Made by a program: the position numbers and the translations under genes
Sequence record: OL615011
Source: Shigella phage vB_SboS_Gloob
DNA length: 64,000 nt
Reading direction: 5' to 3' (one strand)
Shown here: positions 3,962 to 59,518 of the stretch, piece by piece
Layout: each line of letters begins with the position of its first letter
Numbering within the stretch: the first letter of the stretch is position 1
Notes under the pieces: model-generated
Seen by the model: the letters and a program-made list of their open reading frames with translations, nothing else
Told to the model about the DNA's origin: nothing
Databases searched by the model: none

Positions 3962-3972
3962 GGGGTATTTAG
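3962..3972 (-). promoter_or_regulatory. late promoter motif CTAAATACCCC inside a palindrome (AAATACCCCCAT / ATGGGGGTATTT)
   Basis: Exact motif 25-30 nt upstream of gene start 3938; inverted repeat spans about 3936-3972. Confidence 0.5.
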
Positions 3973-4185
3973 GGGATCATGGCAGTTTGTAAACGAAGTT
4001 GGACCAGAACTTGCGAGCGAACTTCTTGGCATAGACCTTCCAGTCGGCGTATTCGCCCTCCTTCAGGTCATTGTAGGTCTCGAACCCTACTGCTCCCAAG
4101 AAGTACGCCGTGAAGATATAGCAGAACAGATTGACGACAAACATGATGTATCTCCGCTGTGTGAACTCAAATTATTTATGGTATG

Positions 4186-31247: not shown

Positions 31248-31288
31248 ATACCCCATAGAGGATTTGCCAATATGGGGTATTTAGTGAA
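31248..31288 (-). repeat. 41-nt module ATACCCCATAGAGGATTTGCCAATATGGGGTATTTAGTGAA, copy 1 (late promoter plus leader palindrome)
   Basis: Identical to 33467-33507; contains CTAAATACCCC on minus strand and inverted repeat ATACCCCATA / TATGGGGTAT. Confidence 0.75.
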
Positions 31289-36554: not shown

Positions 36555-36565
36555 GGGGTATTTAG
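36555..36565 (-). promoter_or_regulatory. late promoter motif CTAAATACCCC with downstream palindrome
   Basis: Exact motif about 30 nt upstream of ATG 36521. Confidence 0.5.
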
Positions 36566-41530: not shown

Positions 41531-43413
41531 CTCAAAGAGGAGAGGACTTTTCAAATTAGCTGGGCTGCGGTAAAGTATTAAACGTGAGGCGAACAGCGCA
41601 TTGAGTTAGGCATCTAAAGCCGACCTCACTAATCCCAGTCTCAGGGGCATGCGTGAATAGAGGCGTGACATCCACCTTGCATGGTGTTAGTGGACGCACT
41701 GACCGTCGGAGAACGAAACTCCCTGTTGTAGCGTGATTAGCTCAGAAATAGAGAGCACCCCGTTGGCAAGTCGACACCAACACATAGGGGAGGTCGGGGG
41801 CGCTAATCTCCATCACGCCGACAACATTATGAGTCTTCACAGAGGGTTCATAATGTTGCGTCAAAGGGCAACACAAAGGTTCCTGTTGGTTGAATTAACT
41901 TGATTCATAGTTCCTGCTGATCTTCCCGGATTCGAAGGAGCACCAACAGGCGAGGCCGGATGCGTAAGTTCCGGCAAATCGATGGCGAGGTGGTGCATTG
42001 GTGACACGGGGTAGCGCCCAGAAGTGTGGTTCGATTCCACACCCTCGCCAACAAATTAAAGGGTTTTCAATAACGGGTTGTAGAGTATAGTTAACCCACT
42101 GAACGAAAAGCTGTTTGGGCATTAGACAAACACTTCGATGTGAACCCAGGACATGGCGTCTTGTGCTCAAACAGGTTTTCGTTCTCGTTGCTTGCGGCTT
42201 TGCGGGTTTTAAGAAACAGACCACAAAGATAAATGCAAATGATAACGCTTATCTGGCAGTAGCTTAACAGCTAAAACACCAGTGAGGTCTTCCGACTCCT
42301 CATAACGAAATTCGGCGCACTAAAATAGGCGGGAGGGTGTGATTAATAAGCTCCCGCCGACATCTGAGAGGGCACTTGATCGAGGTCGGTATCCGCTATA
42401 CGGGATGCTGTAAAATGAATCCACGGAGTGTCCTCCCAGATGTGACTCACAGCACATCAGTTTGCAGTTATGCAAGCTTCAATAAGTTAAAACACGCCTC
42501 AGGCGTTCTGGGATGAAGCCCTGAAAAGTGGAATCCCCAGGGCTGGCAATCCCTGTTAAAGAAGTAGCCGTGTGGGGGTCAGCCCCCCACAACGCAAAGT
42601 AGAGTCCTCTGGACATTGAACTTAACCCAAGGGTTGATTCACATGGTGAACGTTCCCGGCGGCGATAGTACAAGATGAGGGGTCATTGAAGTTCAGAGAA
42701 CTCTACTTTGCGGCAGGTACTGCAAAACAGTGATCATCCTGACAAGTGTGATCACTCTACGATACAAACTGAGTTCGGGCTATCAACCCATACCGTTCTG
42801 GCGGGTCACAAAATACCAGAGAACAAGTTTGCTATCGGCCAGCCTCGTTTGGTCTGAACGTTAGAGGACAAGTGCTGAAGTGTGACGAAGACACTGAAGT
42901 GCGGGTTGTTTAGTGAATCCTGCTAAGCGCAAGGGTTGAGTGGCAAGAACCACCTGAGGATAAGTCAACGCCATTATTCGCCATGATAATGGCATCGGGA
43001 GGCACCCGACACTAAACCGTTTGGCCTGGCGAAAGCAGGCAAGTATCTGGGGTCGATCACCTTATCCTCACCCAGATGCGGGTTGCAGCCTGGCTGCAAC
43101 TCTGATGGCTCTCAATATTCCATAATGTATATCGGTTGTGGATGACAGGTAAATGAGCGGAAAGGCGAGAGCCATCAGAGTTGTGACCAACCCGATCTTG
43201 CAAGCCCGTATCCCTGTATGGTCAAGACTTGCAAGTGGAAAGCCCTGGAAAAATAAACGCCTGTTGTGAGGCCACGGTGCAAGCCAATGACCAACAGAAG
43301 CGCATGCCGTGAGGCGCACAAAGAGGCCTGCATGAACTGATCATGCACAAACGGGATAAAGGGTTGACAGTCCTTGGTTGGTTGCACAATAATGTGTATT
43401 AGGAGCAACATCA
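41531..43413. other. ORF-free, hairpin-dense region; candidate structured ncRNA(s) or cis-acting DNA element
   Basis: No credible ORF on either strand; long perfect inverted repeats and reiterated GGGTTG motif (see findings). Confidence 0.5.
41949..42050 (+). other. tRNA-like element with canonical T-arm and acceptor 3' half but aberrant 5' half
   Basis: TGTGG-TTCGATT-CCACA then CCTCGCC pairing with upstream GGCGAGG; body does not fit a standard cloverleaf. Confidence 0.25.
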
Positions 43414-43635
43414 ATGAGTTATTTTGTATGTGTCTGTGATGTTGAATATTTTGATAAATTTGCTAGGGAATCTTTCTATTCTTTCTTACCGATCCAATCG
43501 TTTAAAACTGAATCGGAAGCAAATAAATCAATGGAACTAATGAGACCTCTTTACAGGAAGGAACTTGCTATTTTGCAGGATTCTGACCTAATAATCATGG
43601 GTAATAGGATCACAAGATCGGTGCCCAAGATATAA
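43414..43635 (+). CDS. hypothetical protein (73 aa) abutting tRNA-Met
   Basis: AGGAG SD; stop 6 nt before tRNA. Confidence 0.45.
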   Translation: MSYFVCVCDVEYFDKFARESFYSFLPIQSFKTESEANKSMELMRPLYRKELAILQDSDLIIMGNRITRSVPKI

Positions 43636-43641
43636 AATTTC

Positions 43642-43717
<76 letters not shown>

Positions 43718-44126
43718 TATTAAGGGGCGATAGTTTAAGGGATAGCTGTCCGGACAGCGAATCCTCATAGAGAACGGCTGGGCGGCCAAACCCAGCAGGT
43801 GAGGTGAAAAGCCTCAGACCCCGCCAAATTTGTGTTGAAGAGACGTTGGGTCAGAACCAACTCGCCCGAAAGGGGGATCGTATAGCGGTAATTATGCTTC
43901 GACACAACAGCATTATGGGGAGCACCGATGAGATGAGGGTTCGGGCGAGTTAAGCGACGGCCGATTAAGTCCTGTACTCTGTTCAAGGTGGTCTTAACCT
44001 CCCCACCAAATATTGTTGGACTGCCAGCAAGCTCCGGTCTACGGCAGGCGTGATGGGATCGCGGAATTCAAATACCGCCTTGGGAGCACCTAAATAAACC
44101 AGTTGTTCAATAAACAGTTGGTGAGT

Positions 44127-44327
44127 ATGATGAAAACGTTCGGTGATTTTATTGCTGAGTGGGATGGCCTCGCTACCGACAACAAAGAGATTGTCGAGTT
44201 TGTTGAAAAGCGAGGTGACAAGTGGGTTGTCCTTGACCACACCAAGACGAAGGTTCTTGGTACACATGACACCAAAGCTGACGCTGATGCCCAATTAAGG
44301 GCGATTGAAGCGAACAAGCACGGATAA
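44127..44327 (+). CDS. hypothetical protein (about 66 aa) abutting tRNA-Asn
   Basis: ORF track (track start is TTG at 44103; ATG at 44127). Confidence 0.4.
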   Translation: MMKTFGDFIAEWDGLATDNKEIVEFVEKRGDKWVVLDHTKTKVLGTHDTKADADAQLRAIEANKHG

Positions 44328-44328
44328 A

Positions 44329-44404
44329 GACGATGTAGTTCAGTCGGTAGAACGGTGGACTGTTAATCCATATGTCACAGGTTCAAGTCCTGTCATCGTC
44401 GCCA
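44329..44404 (+). tRNA. tRNA-Asn (anticodon GTT)
   Basis: GACGATG acceptor, D-arm GTTC-AGTCGGTA-GAAC, anticodon loop CTGTTAA, T-arm ACAGG-TTCAAGT-CCTGT, CCA encoded. Confidence 0.8.
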
Positions 44405-44661
44405 GACAATGGGTGTGAACGAAAGTGAATAGGCACGAAGTACGCGACCGACAAGCTCCAAGCCTCTGTCCAATAGCCGAACGGAATCTGAAGACGACGA
44501 TAGTAACGCCCACCAAATTCAGAGTGTAGAGGCTACAGTAGTGCGCACCTCACGGGTTGCTACACCGGACACTCTGATACAAATCTGCCGCTGCGTGGAT
44601 TAGCTGAGGAAGGATGGCCGATGTCCTCGAGCGTGGCCCAGCACGCAGCGGTAGACCAAAT

Positions 44662-44745
44662 GTGAGTGTGGCAGAGCGGTCGAATGCAGGAGACTGTAAA
44701 TCTCCCCGTAACAGCGCGGTGGTTCGAATCCATCCACTCACACCA
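44662..44745 (+). tRNA. tRNA-Tyr (anticodon GTA), long variable arm
   Basis: Acceptor GTGAGTG/CACTCAC, anticodon stem GGAGA/TCTCC with loop CTGTAAA, T-loop TTCGAAT, CCA encoded. Confidence 0.7.
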
Positions 44746-44886
44746 AACACAGTAAGCGTTGCAGCCACGCTGTGTATCTGGCCAGAAGGCACTGGTCGCC
44801 AGTTAACCAATCGGCGCTGAGAAGCGCGGGGAGTTGGGCTACGGCAGATCAAATGCTCAATCGGGTGTGAAGCCCGTCTAAATTTC

Positions 44887-44970
44887 GCGGGAGCCATAGG
44901 GGTTGGACAGTAGCCGACTGATCATCGGCGACGATCACTGGACAGGTTCGAATCCTGATCTCCCGCTCCA
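44887..44970 (+). tRNA. probable tRNA-Ile (anticodon GAT) with atypical T-stem and long variable region
   Basis: Acceptor GCGGGAG/CTCCCGC, anticodon stem GCCGA/TCGGC with loop CTGATCA, T-loop TTCGAAT; geometry imperfect by eye. Confidence 0.4.
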
Positions 44971-44974
44971 AATT

Positions 44975-45063
44975 GGAAGGTTGCCCGAGAGGTTTAAGAG
45001 ACTCGACTGCTAATCGAGTGGGGCTTTTAGCCCCCGAAGGTTCGAATCCTTCACCTTCCGCCA
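44975..45063 (+). tRNA. tRNA-Ser (anticodon GCT), long variable arm
   Basis: Acceptor GGAAGGT/ACCTTCC, anticodon stem CTCGA/TCGAG with loop CTGCTAA, variable arm TGGGGCTTTTAGCCCCC, T-arm GAAGG-TTCGAAT-CCTTC, CCA encoded. Confidence 0.75.
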
Positions 45064-45158
45064 AATTTGCGATCATCGCGGAAATCCCAGACGCGAGTGG
45101 AGGCCAGGGTGAAGACTGGCACAGTTCATCGACGGCAAAGATGGCTGTCTCCTGGAAT

Positions 45159-45224
45159 TGGGTGGCCTGAATGGTAGGGAAAGCGAGCCAAGCGTCGTGG
45201 GTTCAATTCCCACTCACCCAGCCC
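45159..45224 (+). other. truncated tRNA-like element (about 62 nt)
   Basis: T-arm GTGGG-TTCAATT-CCCAC and acceptor TGGGTGG/TCACCCA but only about 31 nt where D and anticodon arms should be. Confidence 0.25.
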
Positions 45225-45474
45225 CAGATGGAATGGGTCCATCATCGCAAATCATATTTTGGGCGTGACTTCCTGAAGAGTTAGAAGATGTGCATGTCGA
45301 CTCTCTCGTAATCAGGTGTTTAGGAAGTTAAGAAAATCGGAGCGAGGATGGTGAAATGCAAATAGCTTTCTCTACGCTTACGACTTCGGGTTCGATTCCC
45401 GACGCGCTCTCCCATAGGGCAGTACCAGTGCAAAGTGTGTAGTCTTTTCAACCCATCCCCATCGATGTGGCATA

Positions 45475-45503
45475 GCCAGGTAAGGAAACCTGGCTTTCTT
45501 TTG
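45475..45503 (+). terminator. rho-independent terminator ending the tRNA region
   Basis: GCCAGGT-AAGGAA-ACCTGGC followed by TTTCTTTTG. Confidence 0.7.
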
Positions 45504-45508
45504 TCCGG

Positions 45509-45516
45509 TATAAATA
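45509..45516 (+). promoter_or_regulatory. T4-type late promoter box TATAAATA
   Basis: Exact T4 late consensus about 28 nt upstream of ATG 45544. Confidence 0.4.
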
Positions 45517-45543
45517 GATCTGAACTTGTACAGGAGGTGTATC

Positions 45544-45780
45544 ATGGCAACAGCCAAGTTTACTCTGGATGCAAGTACATGGACGCAAGTCTCAGATGGC
45601 ACATCATTGAAAACAATACAAGTGACTCAAGGTTCTGTGTATTTGTGCGATAACCCAACCACGCCGAGTGCTTCCTCTCCGGCTCATACTCTCTATCAAG
45701 GTAATATCGTTGTGCTCACCCCGCCGACTGTTGGGTGGGTTAAGAGCGCGTCTTCTGCTTCCTCTGTTATCGTGTCCTAG
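45544..45780 (+). CDS. hypothetical protein (78 aa)
   Basis: AGGAGG SD; ATG. Confidence 0.5.
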   Translation: MATAKFTLDASTWTQVSDGTSLKTIQVTQGSVYLCDNPTTPSASSPAHTLYQGNIVVLTPPTVGWVKSASSASSVIVS

Positions 45781-45788
45781 GAGGAGCC

Positions 45789-46307
45789 ATGGCCATTCTA
45801 CCTTCTCCTTACCTGGGCAATATGCTCCAGACGCACCGCATCAAAGTTGAAGTGAGGTTCTCTGGCCTCACAGCGGCTTTGCCTGCTGGAGCGACTGGTG
45901 TTGATCTCTTAACGTTGTTGGACGGCAAAACACCGCATCCTTCGTCTGTGACTGGGTTAGCCCCTTTCTTCAAATTGTCCGACCATAAGTTCCATGCATT
46001 TCCGGTCGATTCTATCTTGCCTGTCAAGGTGAACATCATCGGAACATGGTCCGGGTCGACCTCCAACCGAACAATGTTGCTGGACTTTGTCGGCTCAACA
46101 GGCAACCAGATATCCAAGAGTCGAGATTCCAGCGTACCACCCCCAGACGTTCTCTCCTTCATCACGTTCTTCAGTGTTGACAAGGCGGGGAACCTCGCGA
46201 CCAACGGGGCGCAGATGAAGCTGTATTCTTATGGTGGCGACTTCACCGTTAATGAGATCGTTCTGATCGCAGAGCAGGTGGTTCCTCTCTACATGAATAT
46301 CATCTAA
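45789..46307 (+). CDS. hypothetical protein (172 aa)
   Basis: GGAGGAG SD; ATG. Confidence 0.5.
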   Translation: MAILPSPYLGNMLQTHRIKVEVRFSGLTAALPAGATGVDLLTLLDGKTPHPSSVTGLAPFFKLSDHKFHAFPVDSILPVKVNIIGTWSGSTSNRTMLLDFVGSTGNQISKSRDSSVPPPDVLSFITFFSVDKAGNLATNGAQMKLYSYGGDFTVNEIVLIAEQVVPLYMNII

Positions 46308-46324
46308 TTTGTTCAACAACTAAT

Positions 46325-46354
46325 AGGGGTTTAAAATTTAACCGTTAAACCCCT
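46325..46354 (+). terminator. hairpin GGGGTTTAA...TTAAACCCC
   Basis: Perfect 9-bp stem after stop at 46307. Confidence 0.5.
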
Positions 46355-46377
46355 ATCATTGATTTGAGGATACACCA

Positions 46378-48450: not shown

Positions 48451-48461
48451 CTAAATACCCC
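48451..48461 (+). promoter_or_regulatory. late promoter CTAAATACCCC with leader palindrome (ATACCCCA / TGGGGTAT)
   Basis: Exact motif about 22 nt upstream of ATG 48484. Confidence 0.5.
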
Positions 48462-48483: not shown

Positions 48484-48942
48484 ATGAAAACCTTCCTGCA
48501 ATACCTACAAGAATCAGAACATCCTGTTTTCGGCAACCTGTTGTTGTATCATGGGTCTAATTGTGAATTCGATGAGTTCGACTTCAAGCGCTTCGGTCAG
48601 ACAGACTGCGGTACGCTCGGTCCTGGCTTCTATCTGACTGGGTTAGAAGAAGAGGCGCAGCGTTATGCAGACAACGCTGTCCGATATCGACAGGAAGGGG
48701 AACCCCACGTGATGAGTTTCCGTGTTCGCCTCAACAACCCTATTGTGCTGGATTCCAACAATGCCTCAGCCTGGGAAGACCGGATGAGGGAACTTGGCAT
48801 AGAACCAGGAAAGGTTCACGACAATGCAAAAGAGTTGATGGCTCAGGGCTATGACTCCGTCATCATTATTGATCCGGCGGCTCTGCCTATGGTGAGGGAA
48901 GTTGTTGTGTACAAACCAGGCCTGGCAGTGCGGGAAGCCTAA
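48484..48942 (+). CDS. late-expressed hypothetical protein (152 aa)
   Basis: ORF track; contains LLLYHGSN; function unassigned. Confidence 0.5.
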   Translation: MKTFLQYLQESEHPVFGNLLLYHGSNCEFDEFDFKRFGQTDCGTLGPGFYLTGLEEEAQRYADNAVRYRQEGEPHVMSFRVRLNNPIVLDSNNASAWEDRMRELGIEPGKVHDNAKELMAQGYDSVIIIDPAALPMVREVVVYKPGLAVREA

Positions 48943-52060: not shown

Positions 52061-52139
52061 AATAAACTCCTTGGTCAATGAATGGCTCTATGGTTAAATA
52101 TGCCCACGTGCTAACGGCACGGATAACCTGGAGAATTAC

Positions 52140-55139
52140 ATGACCGTTTTCTATACGAACGTTGCCCGTCGGGGCAATGACCTGTTGATTCGAATCGCAG
52201 ATGACATGGGTAATCGCCGTCTGTTGAAAAAGAAATTCGAACCCACTCTCTATTTACCCACGGCTGATTATTCAAATGTTGAAAAGGTCGGCTTGCTCAA
52301 TGAACCCCTGGTGGCCAAGCAGTTCCCTGACATGCGCACTGCTGACAACTACCTTGAAGAGTACAAGGAAGTCCAGGGCGCGGCCATCTATGGACAGACG
52401 GATTATGCATACCAGTTCATCGCCCACAGTTTCCCCGGGAAGATCGAACCGGATTACTCCAACATCCATATCGCCAACCTCGATATCGAAGTGTTCACCG
52501 CCGGGTGGAAAGACGGGGAGATGACCAAGGGTCCATTTCCTCATCCGACTATTGAGCAGCAGACGTTCAAAGGTAGCGAGGCACGCATCCGCCGCTTCCA
52601 TCAGCAGGTACTGGCCAACCATGACTTCATCCGTGAGCACTTTCCCAGTTCCTTTATCAGCAACAACGTGACCGACCAGTTCCCTATCATTGATAGCAAT
52701 GGCAAGATCACCCAGGACATGAATGCAGCGTTCCCTATCACGCTCATCCAGCTTCAGGACATGGCGACCAATAAGTTCATGGTGTGGGGTATGCCGTGCG
52801 CGAAGGATCGTGCGAAGTTCAGATACGATCCAGAAGACGCGGAGATCGGTGGACTTGAGGTGGAGTACAAGGAGTTTGTCACCGAGCAGGATCTGCTGCG
52901 ATCTTTCCTTGACTTCTGGTCACAGCGTCAGTTTGATGGCTGGACAGGCTGGAACATCGAGACGTTTGATAGCCCGTACCTTGTTGAGCGCATGAACCAG
53001 GTTCTGGGCGAAGCCGAAACATCTCGCCTCAGCCCGTGGGGAATCATCAAGAAGCGCACCATCCGCGATAAGAAGGGTGACATCACGACATATCAGTTCG
53101 TGGGCTGCCCTATGCTTGACTACATGCAGATCTACAAGAAGCACACGTACACCACGCGTGAGCGGTACTCTCTTGATTGGATTGCGTATTGTGAGCTGGG
53201 TGAGAAGAAGATGGACTACAGTGAGAGCAAGTCGCTCTTTGACCTGTACTTCAACGACTATGCCAAACACACCCGATATGGTATCAAGGACGTCAAGCTG
53301 GTATGGCGTCTTGAGCAGAAGCTGCGTTTGCTTCAGCTGATGTTCGTCCTTGCGTACCGCACCAAGTCCAACTATGAAGACGGCCTGGGTACAGTGGCTC
53401 CGTGGCTGGCCATGTGCTACTATCGTCTGTATGAGAAGGGGATAGTGCCTAAGATCCAGCGTGTATACGATGGTCCGACCGATTTTGAGGGCGCATACGT
53501 CATGGAGGTGACACCAGGAATCTACTTCTGGGTCTTCTCTGAGGACTTGAACTCCCTCTACCCTCACATCATCCAGCAATACAACCTCGGTCCTGAGACT
53601 ATCGTTGGCGACAAACACCAGCGCCGTGAGATCATTGAGGCTATGTGTGAAGAGCTGGCTGCTCAGATGAATAACATGGCAACGCCGATGCACAAACGTC
53701 GGTTGATGAAAGCCCTTCACGACAAACTGTTGCGTGCGATTGACGAACGCCTGCAGGTTGTTGATGAACTGGTTGCCCTGGGTGAGTTCCACTTTGAGAC
53801 CCTGCGCCGCTACAACGTGTCCTTCACGCCGAACGTTCAGTTCTTCAGCAACGAGAAGATGTCGTTCCTGTCTGAAATCATGCGTGGTATCTACAGCGAC
53901 CGTAAAGTAGAGAAAGCCAAGGGTCTGAAGTATGAGCAGTGGGCTGGCTGGTGTAAAGAGATGGCGAAGGGTGACTTCCATCTTGAATCTGCGATGAAGT
54001 CGCGCTTCTATGATCCAGAGTGGTATGAAGAGCACAAGAACATTGATCTTGATGCACTGACCGAAGTGATGAAGAAGTGGGAAGATCTGGGGGTTGCCCA
54101 AGATACTCTTCAGCAAGGTCTGAAGATCTTGATGAACGCAGGTTATGGTGCGATCTCAAACGTCTGGTTCAAAGAGTACTTCAACCTCAACATCGCCGAA
54201 GCCATCACAACGTCCGGTCAGCTGATCAACAAGTGGAACAAGCGCTACACCGATGACTATCTGAACAAGCTGTGCGGCACGACAGGCCAGGACTTCGTCA
54301 TCGCGGGTGATACTGACTCCAACTACATCTGCATTGAGCGTCTTGTCAAGCAGTTGTGGCCTGATGTTACTGACCATCATGCTATGGTTGATAATATCGA
54401 CCAATGGATCAAGGACAACTACCAGCCGAAGACCAATGAGTGGGCACAGCTTCTGTGTAACACCATGAACGGATTTGAACAGCGCATGGTGTGGGAGCGT
54501 GAAGTAATTGCATCAGCTGCCGTCTGGCGAGCCAAGAAGATGTATGCCATGGCCGTGTACGACAGTGAGGGTATCAAGTACGAGAAGCCGAAGATCAAGT
54601 TCAAAGGTCTGGAAGCCCGTAAGTCCACCACGCCGGAATGGTGTCGTGAGCGTCTTGTTAAGTGCTATGAGAAGATCCTGCTCGGCACCGAAGAGGAAGT
54701 ACAGACGCTCATCTCCCAGTACAAAGAGGAGTACATGAAGCTCTCTGTAGACGATATCGCCAAGGCATCCGGTGTGTCCGACATAGAGAAGTGTGTGGCC
54801 GCCGACGGCTCGTTCATCTCTGGTGCTCACTATGCTGCCAAGGCATGTGTGGGTTACAACCGCATGGTAGAGAAGAACGAAGACCTCGGCCTGCCGATGA
54901 TTGAGTCGGGTGATAAGGTCAACATGGTACTGCTGAAGAATGGCAACCCGTTTGGCCAGAATTACTTCGCATATCCTGAGTTCTTCCCCGAGGAACTGGG
55001 TATGGGTAAATGGGTGGATTACCATACAGCCTTTGAGAAGTCCTTCATCGACCCTATTCAGTCCATCCTTGACGTGGTCGGCTGGTCACACAAGCGTCGT
55101 GTGAACCTTCTTGCCATGATGCAAAAGAAGAAAGGTTGA
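52140..55139 (+). CDS. DNA polymerase, family B, T4 gp43-like (999 aa)
   Basis: Exo I NLDIEVF, motif A DLNSLYPHII, motif C IAGDTDS. Confidence 0.95.
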   Translation: MTVFYTNVARRGNDLLIRIADDMGNRRLLKKKFEPTLYLPTADYSNVEKVGLLNEPLVAKQFPDMRTADNYLEEYKEVQGAAIYGQTDYAYQFIAHSFPGKIEPDYSNIHIANLDIEVFTAGWKDGEMTKGPFPHPTIEQQTFKGSEARIRRFHQQVLANHDFIREHFPSSFISNNVTDQFPIIDSNGKITQDMNAAFPITLIQLQDMATNKFMVWGMPCAKDRAKFRYDPEDAEIGGLEVEYKEFVTEQDLLRSFLDFWSQRQFDGWTGWNIETFDSPYLVERMNQVLGEAETSRLSPWGIIKKRTIRDKKGDITTYQFVGCPMLDYMQIYKKHTYTTRERYSLDWIAYCELGEKKMDYSESKSLFDLYFNDYAKHTRYGIKDVKLVWRLEQKLRLLQLMFVLAYRTKSNYEDGLGTVAPWLAMCYYRLYEKGIVPKIQRVYDGPTDFEGAYVMEVTPGIYFWVFSEDLNSLYPHIIQQYNLGPETIVGDKHQRREIIEAMCEELAAQMNNMATPMHKRRLMKALHDKLLRAIDERLQVVDELVALGEFHFETLRRYNVSFTPNVQFFSNEKMSFLSEIMRGIYSDRKVEKAKGLKYEQWAGWCKEMAKGDFHLESAMKSRFYDPEWYEEHKNIDLDALTEVMKKWEDLGVAQDTLQQGLKILMNAGYGAISNVWFKEYFNLNIAEAITTSGQLINKWNKRYTDDYLNKLCGTTGQDFVIAGDTDSNYICIERLVKQLWPDVTDHHAMVDNIDQWIKDNYQPKTNEWAQLLCNTMNGFEQRMVWEREVIASAAVWRAKKMYAMAVYDSEGIKYEKPKIKFKGLEARKSTTPEWCRERLVKCYEKILLGTEEEVQTLISQYKEEYMKLSVDDIAKASGVSDIEKCVAADGSFISGAHYAAKACVGYNRMVEKNEDLGLPMIESGDKVNMVLLKNGNPFGQNYFAYPEFFPEELGMGKWVDYHTAFEKSFIDPIQSILDVVGWSHKRRVNLLAMMQKKKG

Positions 55140-59314: not shown

Positions 59315-59350
59315 TATAAATATCCTCGCCTATAAAGTGAGGATATTATC

Positions 59351-59518
59351 ATGTTACAAGATCTGTTGGTCTACGCACTTCCGGGTGTGGTTGTTGGATT
59401 CATCGCAGGTGCTCTGGTCTTCCGTAAACACGCGCAAGACGGTGAAGTGATTGTTCAAAAGGGTAAAGACATCCTGGAACAAATCGAAGCCAAACTGGAA
59501 GAGCTGAAGAAAAAGTAA
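59351..59518 (+). CDS. small membrane protein (55 aa)
   Basis: GTGAGGA SD; TM segment LVYALPGVVVGFIAGALVF; too short for the ORF track. Confidence 0.4.
   Translation: MLQDLLVYALPGVVVGFIAGALVFRKHAQDGEVIVQKGKDILEQIEAKLEELKKK

Follow-up and report, generated by a model that had tools for sequence, protein, structure and literature searches.

A probable T4-type late promoter after the tRNA region of a ViI-like Shigella phage, and its coexistence with CTAAATA-type boxes

The Ackermannviridae are 'ViI-like' relatives of T4, and late transcription in the T4 family requires gp55, gp33 and gp45. The motif CTAAATAcCcc was reportedly first described in the proposal of the genus 'Viunalikevirus'. It is listed as a regulatory motif for EspM4VN, a ViI-like phage (PMC7283392). 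In T4, 32 of 50 late sites match the consensus perfectly, and the commonest variant is A at position -13, found in 9 of the 50 (PMC2988020). The same gp55 enzyme also works at sites that deviate from the consensus at a single position (PMC2988020). In the case of Aeromonas phage Aeh1, the late consensus has a/gC instead of TA at -13 and -12 (PMC2988020). Late promoters are also part of a translational gate at the T4 genes e, soc, 49 and I-TevI. The early read-through RNA of these genes hides the ribosome-binding site (RBS), and translation takes place from the late transcript, whose start lies within the 5' arm (PMC3014915). In CBA120, ViI and AG3, genes for gp55, gp33 and gp45 are present, and MotA and AsiA are absent; a T4-type middle mode is therefore unlikely in the family (PMC3184105). 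Adriaenssens et al. (2012; PMC3296691) predicted 33 late promoters in Dickeya phage LIMEstone1 from their resemblance to the -10 box of T4.

The DNA analysed here, which we call the window, is a stretch of 64,000 nucleotides. A 6.5-kb stretch around the box under study showed 96-97% identity to Shigella phages MK-13 and Ag3 and to Salmonella phage P46FS4 (Agtrevirus). The identity to Dickeya Limestonevirus phages was about 90% over the same stretch, and the Kuttervirus and Taipeivirus matches were more distant. By sequence comparison, the window is from an Ackermannviridae (ViI-like) phage near MK-13 and Ag3. The box TATAAATA occupies 45509-45516 (+), embedded in GGTATAAATAG at 45507-45517, and is an exact match to the T4 late-promoter consensus. 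Its orthologs showed the consensus or a single deviation from it (AATAAATA). By the T4 rule, the box would cover -13 to -6 of a predicted gp55-type late promoter. The predicted late transcription start is then the sixth nucleotide after the box, 45522 (+), according to the T4 geometry in which the box is numbered from -13 (PMC2988020). The ATG at 45544-45546 follows the box after 27 nt, in agreement with the sequence-only reading, which had put the distance at about 28 nt. The Shine-Dalgarno (SD) sequence AGGAGG is located at 45532-45537. The base before TAAATA, at 45510, is A and not C, and the tail is GATC and not cCcc, so the site does not have the ViI-like CTAAATAcCcc form. Hereafter, boxes with A or C before TAAATA are called A-type and C-type, respectively. 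The 6 nt after the box, GATCTG, had 50% G+C, and the averages were 44% for A-type and 52% for C-type boxes.

The box begins 13 nt after the end of a terminator stem-loop. This intrinsic terminator (45474-45503, +) was identified by scan, fold and covariation and consists of a stem-loop at 45474-45495 followed by TTTCTTTT. The stem contains 8 bp, 5 of which are G-C pairs, and the T-rich tail in the scan was TTTCTTTTG. When 10 relatives from four genera were compared, 100% of the stem cells were paired with two compensatory pairs, against 19-54% in slid controls. These results indicated that the terminator was real, and the earlier observation of a T4 late-promoter consensus box directly after a tRNA-region terminator was confirmed. 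The tRNA cluster at 43642-45063 (+) contains tRNA-Met(cat), -Asn(gtt), -Tyr(gta) and -Ser(gct), together with a low-scoring tRNA-Ile(gat)-like sequence at 44887-44970. tRNA-Ser, which ends at 45063, is the last confident tRNA, and the terminator follows about 410 nt further on. The name 'tRNA-region terminator' was still a fair label, because the interval contains degenerate tRNA-like sequence. A sigma-70-like promoter (TTGACA, 18 nt, AATAAT; 11/12, by consensus match only) is located at 43364-43393 (+), upstream of a 73-aa ORF and the tRNA cluster. It is probably the start of an early unit that is closed by the terminator at 45474-45495.

When 42000-46000 was scanned with Rfam, only the four tRNAs were above threshold, and no match was found at the box. 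The tRNA-Ile(gat) sequence at 44887-44970 was detected only with relaxed ARAGORN settings, and it gave a weak Rfam tRNA-Sec match. T-arm-like motifs, GGTTCGAATCC and GGGTTCAATTCCC, were found between tRNA-Ser and the terminator in two stretches at about 45150-45215 and 45380-45412 (+). These tRNA-like stretches, additional to the four confident tRNAs, probably represent decayed tRNA genes. A degenerate tRNA has also been described at the end of the tRNA cluster of CBA120 (PMC3184105). Upstream of the cluster, the non-coding stretch 42908-43017 (+) gave a sub-threshold match to STnc100 (38.6 bits, gathering cutoff 47, E=5e-6). STnc100 is a gammaproteobacterial sRNA.

The frequency of the box was determined in the window. 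TATAAATA occurred twice in 64 kb with 0.67 expected, and at least two copies were obtained in 16 of 100 shuffles. The raw over-representation within the window was not significant, so placement and conservation were used instead. A promoter zone was defined as 24-56 nt upstream of an SD and ATG that open a same-strand ORF of at least 50 aa, which covers 3.1% of positions. Both copies of TATAAATA in the window were located in this zone, as were 5 of 7 in LIMEstone1, 2 of 2 in the syntenic Vi01 region and the single copy in the syntenic KWBSE43-6 region. A similar trend was observed for ATAAATA (3 of 6 in the window, p=6e-4; 6 of 14 in LIMEstone1, p=6e-6) and CTAAATA (12 of 14 in the window; 14 of 20 in LIMEstone1). 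The placement of the boxes is non-random. The motif search upstream of genes proposed in the sequence-only reading thus gave a divided answer, random frequency by count and non-random placement (2 of 2 in the 3.1% zone). In the case of CTAAATACCCC, seven exact copies and one copy with one mismatch were found in the window with 0.6 expected, which was matched by none of 100 shuffles.

One of the CTAAATACCCC boxes precedes a gene at 48484-48942 (+), and its 152-aa product contains an ART-PolyVal ADP-ribosyltransferase domain (PF18760, 46.6 bits, cutoff 31.2). The LIMEstone1 ortholog, ORF173, is a virion protein by mass spectrometry. The 152-aa protein could be a packaged, Alt-like ADP-ribosyltransferase. 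The family has been reported to be without Alt and ModA homologs (PMC3184105).

Conservation of the box was examined at the orthologous site. [T/A]ATAAATA was found in about 20 relatives of four genera, and the flanks varied. The site reads TATAAATA in Agtrevirus, Limestonevirus and Taipeivirus and AATAAATA in Kuttervirus. In UViG_3300045988, the flanks were changed from GG/GATC to AT/CACC and the box was kept. The box was also kept in Taipeivirus, in which 5 nt are inserted and the spacer is unrelated. The two copies against 0.67 expected, with as many in 16 of 100 shuffles, would suit a chance AT-rich 8-mer without function. However, the positional enrichment and the conservation across four genera with changing flanks made such a coincidence hardly credible. 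In Salmonella phage bering (NC_049502.1, positions 415-430 of the extracted piece), a natural 10-nt deletion (ATAAATAGAT) removed the box, and the terminator, the SD and both downstream genes stayed. This meant that the box was dispensable for a viable isolate, or that the record contained an error. The bering deletion is a natural, ready-made way to ask whether expression requires the box.

The genes behind the box were compared with those of LIMEstone1. The product of the ORF at 45544-45780 (+) is a conserved protein of 78 aa and unknown function (phrog_4772; ortholog of LIMEstone1 ORF168). This ORF is followed at 45789-46307 (+) by a gene for a 172-aa protein (phrog_1030; ortholog of LIMEstone1 ORF169) with an Sf6-type tail-needle-knob domain (PF16532, Phage_tail_NK, 98.5 bits, cutoff 27). 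ORF169 is annotated as a 'confirmed structural protein' by mass spectrometry. A stem-loop, TAGGGGTTTAA...TTAAACCCCTA, was found in the sequence 3' of the knob gene at 46324-46357 (+), where the LIMEstone1 ortholog is annotated as a terminator. It was absent from the terminator scan list because of its weak T tail. The stem-loop is the probable end of a two-gene late unit. The gene content and the downstream stem-loop give the unit the appearance of a short two-gene late operon.

A host sigma-70 promoter was considered, with the box as its -10 element and with early or constitutive expression. TATAAA within the box matches TATAAT at 5 of 6 positions. However, there was no acceptable -35 hexamer at 16-18 nt (the sequence 17 nt upstream is AAACCT) and no TG extension, and the downstream product is a virion protein. 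Position -35 of the predicted promoter falls in the T-tract and stem of the terminator. In addition, a scan for -35/-10 hexamers with 16-18 nt spacing and at least 9/12 matches did not call a promoter at the box. We therefore regard expression from a sigma-70 promoter as very unlikely.

The late-transcription machinery was searched for in relatives. In LIMEstone1, we found a gp55-like sigma (phrog_234, 175.7 bits), gp33 (PF16805, 65.9 bits, cutoff 25) and the gp45 clamp (phrog_223, 221 bits). The gp55-like protein was identified only by PHROGs, with no meaningful match among PDB chains and none in Pfam. A tblastn search of 150 kb of the 152-kb LIMEstone1 genome gave no second gp55-like sigma. 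Because the gp55, gp33 and gp45 genes lie outside the window, we infer their presence in this phage from the relatives.

RNA folding was examined at the boxes. In 7-8 of 15 gene-proximal boxes of the window, the last three nucleotides of the box (ATA) and at least the next five formed the 5' arm of a hairpin, and the 3' arm covered the RBS. The TAAATA elements of the hairpin-bearing boxes start at 3971, 19924, 31283, 33502, 36564 and 40450 (-) and at 48452 and 59317 (+). The arms were ATACCCCAT...ATGGGGTAT at 31283, 33502 and 48452, ATACCCCTAGATG...CATTTAGGGGTAT at 36564, and ATATCCTCGC...GTGAGGATAT at the other TATAAATA box (59317). The energies of the RBS hairpins were -9.6 to -17.3 kcal/mol, and equally stable shuffles were obtained at most once in 300 per site and not at all at most sites. 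Removal of the first 9 nt, as expected if transcription started 6 nt after the box as in T4, left -0.4 to -3.4 kcal/mol. Leaders in the window had a median of -11.0 kcal/mol with a box and -4.8 kcal/mol without a box (p=0.009); the difference was weaker in LIMEstone1 (p=0.09). This anti-SD hairpin architecture was found with both A-type and C-type boxes.

At the 45509 site, the repeat was imperfect in the window. The 5' arm ATAGATCT at 45514-45521 (+) and the 3' arm AGGTGTAT at 45535-45542 (+), which overlaps the SD, form an inverted repeat with one central G.G mismatch in the window, LIMEstone1 and P46FS4. It was absent from the minimum-energy fold. The fold of the window's own leader gave only a 5-bp hairpin with the SD exposed in the loop, no better than shuffles. 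In the case of Kuttervirus, ATAGATCT and AGGTCTAT were fully paired at -6.8 kcal/mol. In UViG_3300045988, ATACACCT and AGGTGTAT paired perfectly through a compensatory G-to-C change (-8.6 kcal/mol). The arms of the Taipeivirus site were AATACC and GGTATT. On the alignment, 90.5% of the cells of the arms paired, compared with 34-64% in slid controls.

These pairings bear on the possibility that the box is not a promoter. ATAAATA and the next 5 nt might owe their conservation mainly to a role as the 5' arm of an RBS hairpin, or as another RNA or DNA element, and the genes might be expressed by read-through of a leaky terminator. The last three nucleotides of the box and the next five do pair with the SD region in Kuttervirus, and they do so perfectly in UViG_3300045988 after the compensatory change; phage bering keeps the genes without the box. 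However, the pairing involves only the ATA of the box, yet the whole of [T/A]ATAAATA is conserved. The pairing in the window is imperfect and was not predicted by folding, the placement statistics of the motif hold genome-wide, and a strong terminator lies directly upstream. For these reasons, such a non-promoter role of the box seems quite unlikely.

The hairpins also bear on the C-type motif. The 'cCcc' of CTAAATAcCcc pairs as CCCC with a GGGG SD, which suggests that it serves, at least in part, as an anti-SD arm and does not reflect promoter specificity. With 'cCcc' read as an anti-SD arm, the gap between the two 'classes' of boxes would be narrowed further. We tentatively propose a wider view, which we consider possible without favouring it strongly. 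All boxes would belong to one gp55 class, and the difference in the tails (CCCC versus GATCT or TCCTC) would be the anti-Shine-Dalgarno arm of a genome-wide translational gate. Read-through RNA from upstream would be folded and silent, and transcripts started at late boxes would lack the arm and be translated. The trick of the T4 lysozyme gene would thus be generalised to a large share of Ackermannviridae late genes.

The two types of boxes were compared at -13 and -12. Among the gene-proximal TAAATA boxes of the window and LIMEstone1, T at -13 was found in none of 26 C-type boxes and in 7 of 9 A-type boxes. LIMEstone1 alone gave a similar result (0 of 14 and 5 of 6, respectively; Fisher p ~4e-4, calculated by hand). 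The two bases were coupled, and the family therefore has two 8-mers, [A/C/G]CTAAATA and TATAAATA, with no degenerate continuum between them. A-type boxes were the minority, with 3 of the 16 gene-proximal boxes in the window. Since Aeh1 has a/gC at -13 and -12, the majority motif of the window corresponds to the Aeh1 flavour and the box at 45509 to the T4 flavour. A CCCC tail was found on none of the A-type boxes of the window and LIMEstone1. The box-to-ATG spacing was 24-35 nt for A-type and 23-42 nt for C-type boxes, and the ranges overlapped. No switch between C and A was observed at orthologous promoter sites, for which 15 sites in four genera were compared; the only changes were a switch from C to T at site 3971 and the loss of site 4178 in KWBSE43-6.

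The TATAAATA and AATAAATA boxes could accordingly be read as a promoter subclass distinct from [A/C/G]CTAAATA in strength, timing or co-factor. The bimodal dinucleotide at -13 and -12, the stability of the box type at the 15 orthologous sites of the four genera and the restriction of the CCCC tail to other boxes are in its favour. However, the orthologous flanks are also highly conserved, so the stability of the type may reflect low divergence only. Genes for virion proteins follow both types, the ATG spacing overlaps, and the anti-SD hairpin architecture occurs with both. A single gp55 homolog was detected in LIMEstone1; T4 gp55 uses single-deviation variants, and Aeh1 has a/gC at -13 and -12 (PMC2988020). 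Taken together, we consider a distinct subclass unlikely. The sequence-only reading had noted that a T4-type box coexists with the other motif class of the window. This was borne out, as the CTAAATA(CCCC) sites were enriched and two sequence flavours were found. Its further suggestion of two late or middle promoter classes, or of a differently timed transcript, was not supported. The downstream virion genes were of the same kind, the spacing overlapped, the hairpin architecture was shared, one gp55 homolog was detected in 150 kb of LIMEstone1, and MotA and AsiA are absent from the family (PMC3184105).

The other A-type boxes of the window were TATAAATA at 59315 (+) and CATAAATA at 4179 (-). 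Each precedes a conserved 55-aa ORF, located at 59351-59518 (+) and 3980-4144 (-) and assigned to phrog_3879 and phrog_4845. In LIMEstone1, the ortholog of ORF 59351-59518 is annotated with a transmembrane domain, and it lies near the Vi01 region marked 'host lysis protein'. The small product of ORF 59351-59518 may act in lysis timing and be gated by the hairpin.

The box at 45509 is probably a T4-type late promoter of the same gp55-dependent class as the [A/C/G]CTAAATA sites, in which two sequence flavours are present and would not be separately timed. From the observed sequence, placement and conservation of the box, the gene content and the late-transcription genes of relatives, we infer that it acts as a promoter, where and when transcription starts, and that it shares a sigma with the other sites. 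After the onset of phage DNA replication, host RNA polymerase core with a phage gp55-like sigma would recognise TATAAATA at 45509-45516, assisted by a gp33-like co-activator and the gp45 sliding clamp. Transcription would start about 6 nt downstream of the box, near 45522. The product would be a short mRNA of two genes, one for the 78-aa protein and one for the virion protein with the tail-needle-knob domain, and its 3' end would lie at the stem-loop at about 46324-46357. The upstream terminator would insulate this late unit from the transcript of the tRNA cluster.

The LIMEstone1 annotation was compared with these results. The orthologous TAAATA of LIMEstone1 (NC_019925, 130827-130832) is annotated as 'minus_10_signal, putative late promoter'. 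When all 33 annotated LIMEstone1 sites were extracted, 6 were TATAAATA, 1 was CATAAATA and about 14 were CTAAATA. Four properly placed TATAAATA sites of LIMEstone1 precede virion proteins confirmed by mass spectrometry, namely the gp26 hub, ORF081, ORF093 and ORF169. The mix of box types meant that the coexistence is family-wide and is already in the public annotation, as a prediction. The feature is thus already known at the annotation level. In the literature search, no transcriptome, map of transcript 5' ends or timing data were found for Ackermannviridae or Kuttervirus.

One site annotated as a late promoter in LIMEstone1, GTTAAATA before the DNA polymerase gene (52095), was not counted because its TAAATA was not conserved in Vi01 or KWBSE43-6. 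The leader (52095-52142, +) of this gene, which encodes a 999-aa DNA polymerase, contains a short hairpin, CGTGC-UAACG-GCACG. The hairpin is located just 5' of the SD and is kept in all four genera. It is reminiscent of the translational operator of T4 gene 43.

As a discovery, the box is minor, since a T4-consensus late promoter is expected in a T4-related phage and the orthologous LIMEstone1 site was annotated already. In the case of annotation, late promoters of ViI-like phages should be searched with both [T/A]ATAAATA and [A/C/G]CTAAATA, because about half of the gene-proximal boxes escape a search with CTAAATAcCcc alone. The family is also a convenient natural system for studying how a gp55-type sigma reads -13 and -12, because the T4 and Aeh1 flavours are present in one genome.

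Compared with known systems, the LIMEstone1 site shows the same sequence as the window all the way from the T-tract of the terminator to the end of the ATG, and the genes behind it (ORF168 and ORF169) are shared. However, LIMEstone1 is another phage species with another host, and its annotation is a prediction from similarity to T4. The ViI-like CTAAATAcCcc sites have the TAAATA core in common with the box, lie 23-42 nt before the starts of virion genes and often carry the same RBS hairpin. In contrast, the box has A for C at -12 and T for A, C or G at -13, and the CCCC tail is absent. Aeh1 indicates that gp55 homologs of other T4-related lineages use CTAAATA-type boxes, like the majority motif of the window; the box at 45509 is of the T4 flavour, unlike the Aeh1 flavour. 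In the T4 gates of e, soc, 49 and I-TevI, the late promoter is located in the 5' arm of an SD-sequestering hairpin, and the same layout was found at 7-8 boxes of the window. The Kuttervirus and UViG_3300045988 copies of the 45509 site also share it, and the 5' arm would be lost from transcripts that start 6 nt after the box. However, the window's copy at 45509 is mismatched and not predicted to fold, and the repeat could act in RNA or DNA.

The box was also compared with the T4 late promoters themselves. In T4, TATAAATA is the dominant form, whereas it is in the minority here (3 of 16 gene-proximal boxes of the window), and the AT-rich segment that follows the T4 box is replaced by GATCTG, which is not markedly AT-rich. 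For the site described here, promoter activity, start and clamp dependence are predicted. However, the 8 bp are the same, both lack a -35 element, and both lie upstream of a gene for a virion protein. The Kuttervirus ortholog, AATAAATA, is the commonest natural variant of T4 (PMC2988020). In addition, homologs of gp55, gp33 and gp45 of the T4 late system are also present in the relatives of this phage.
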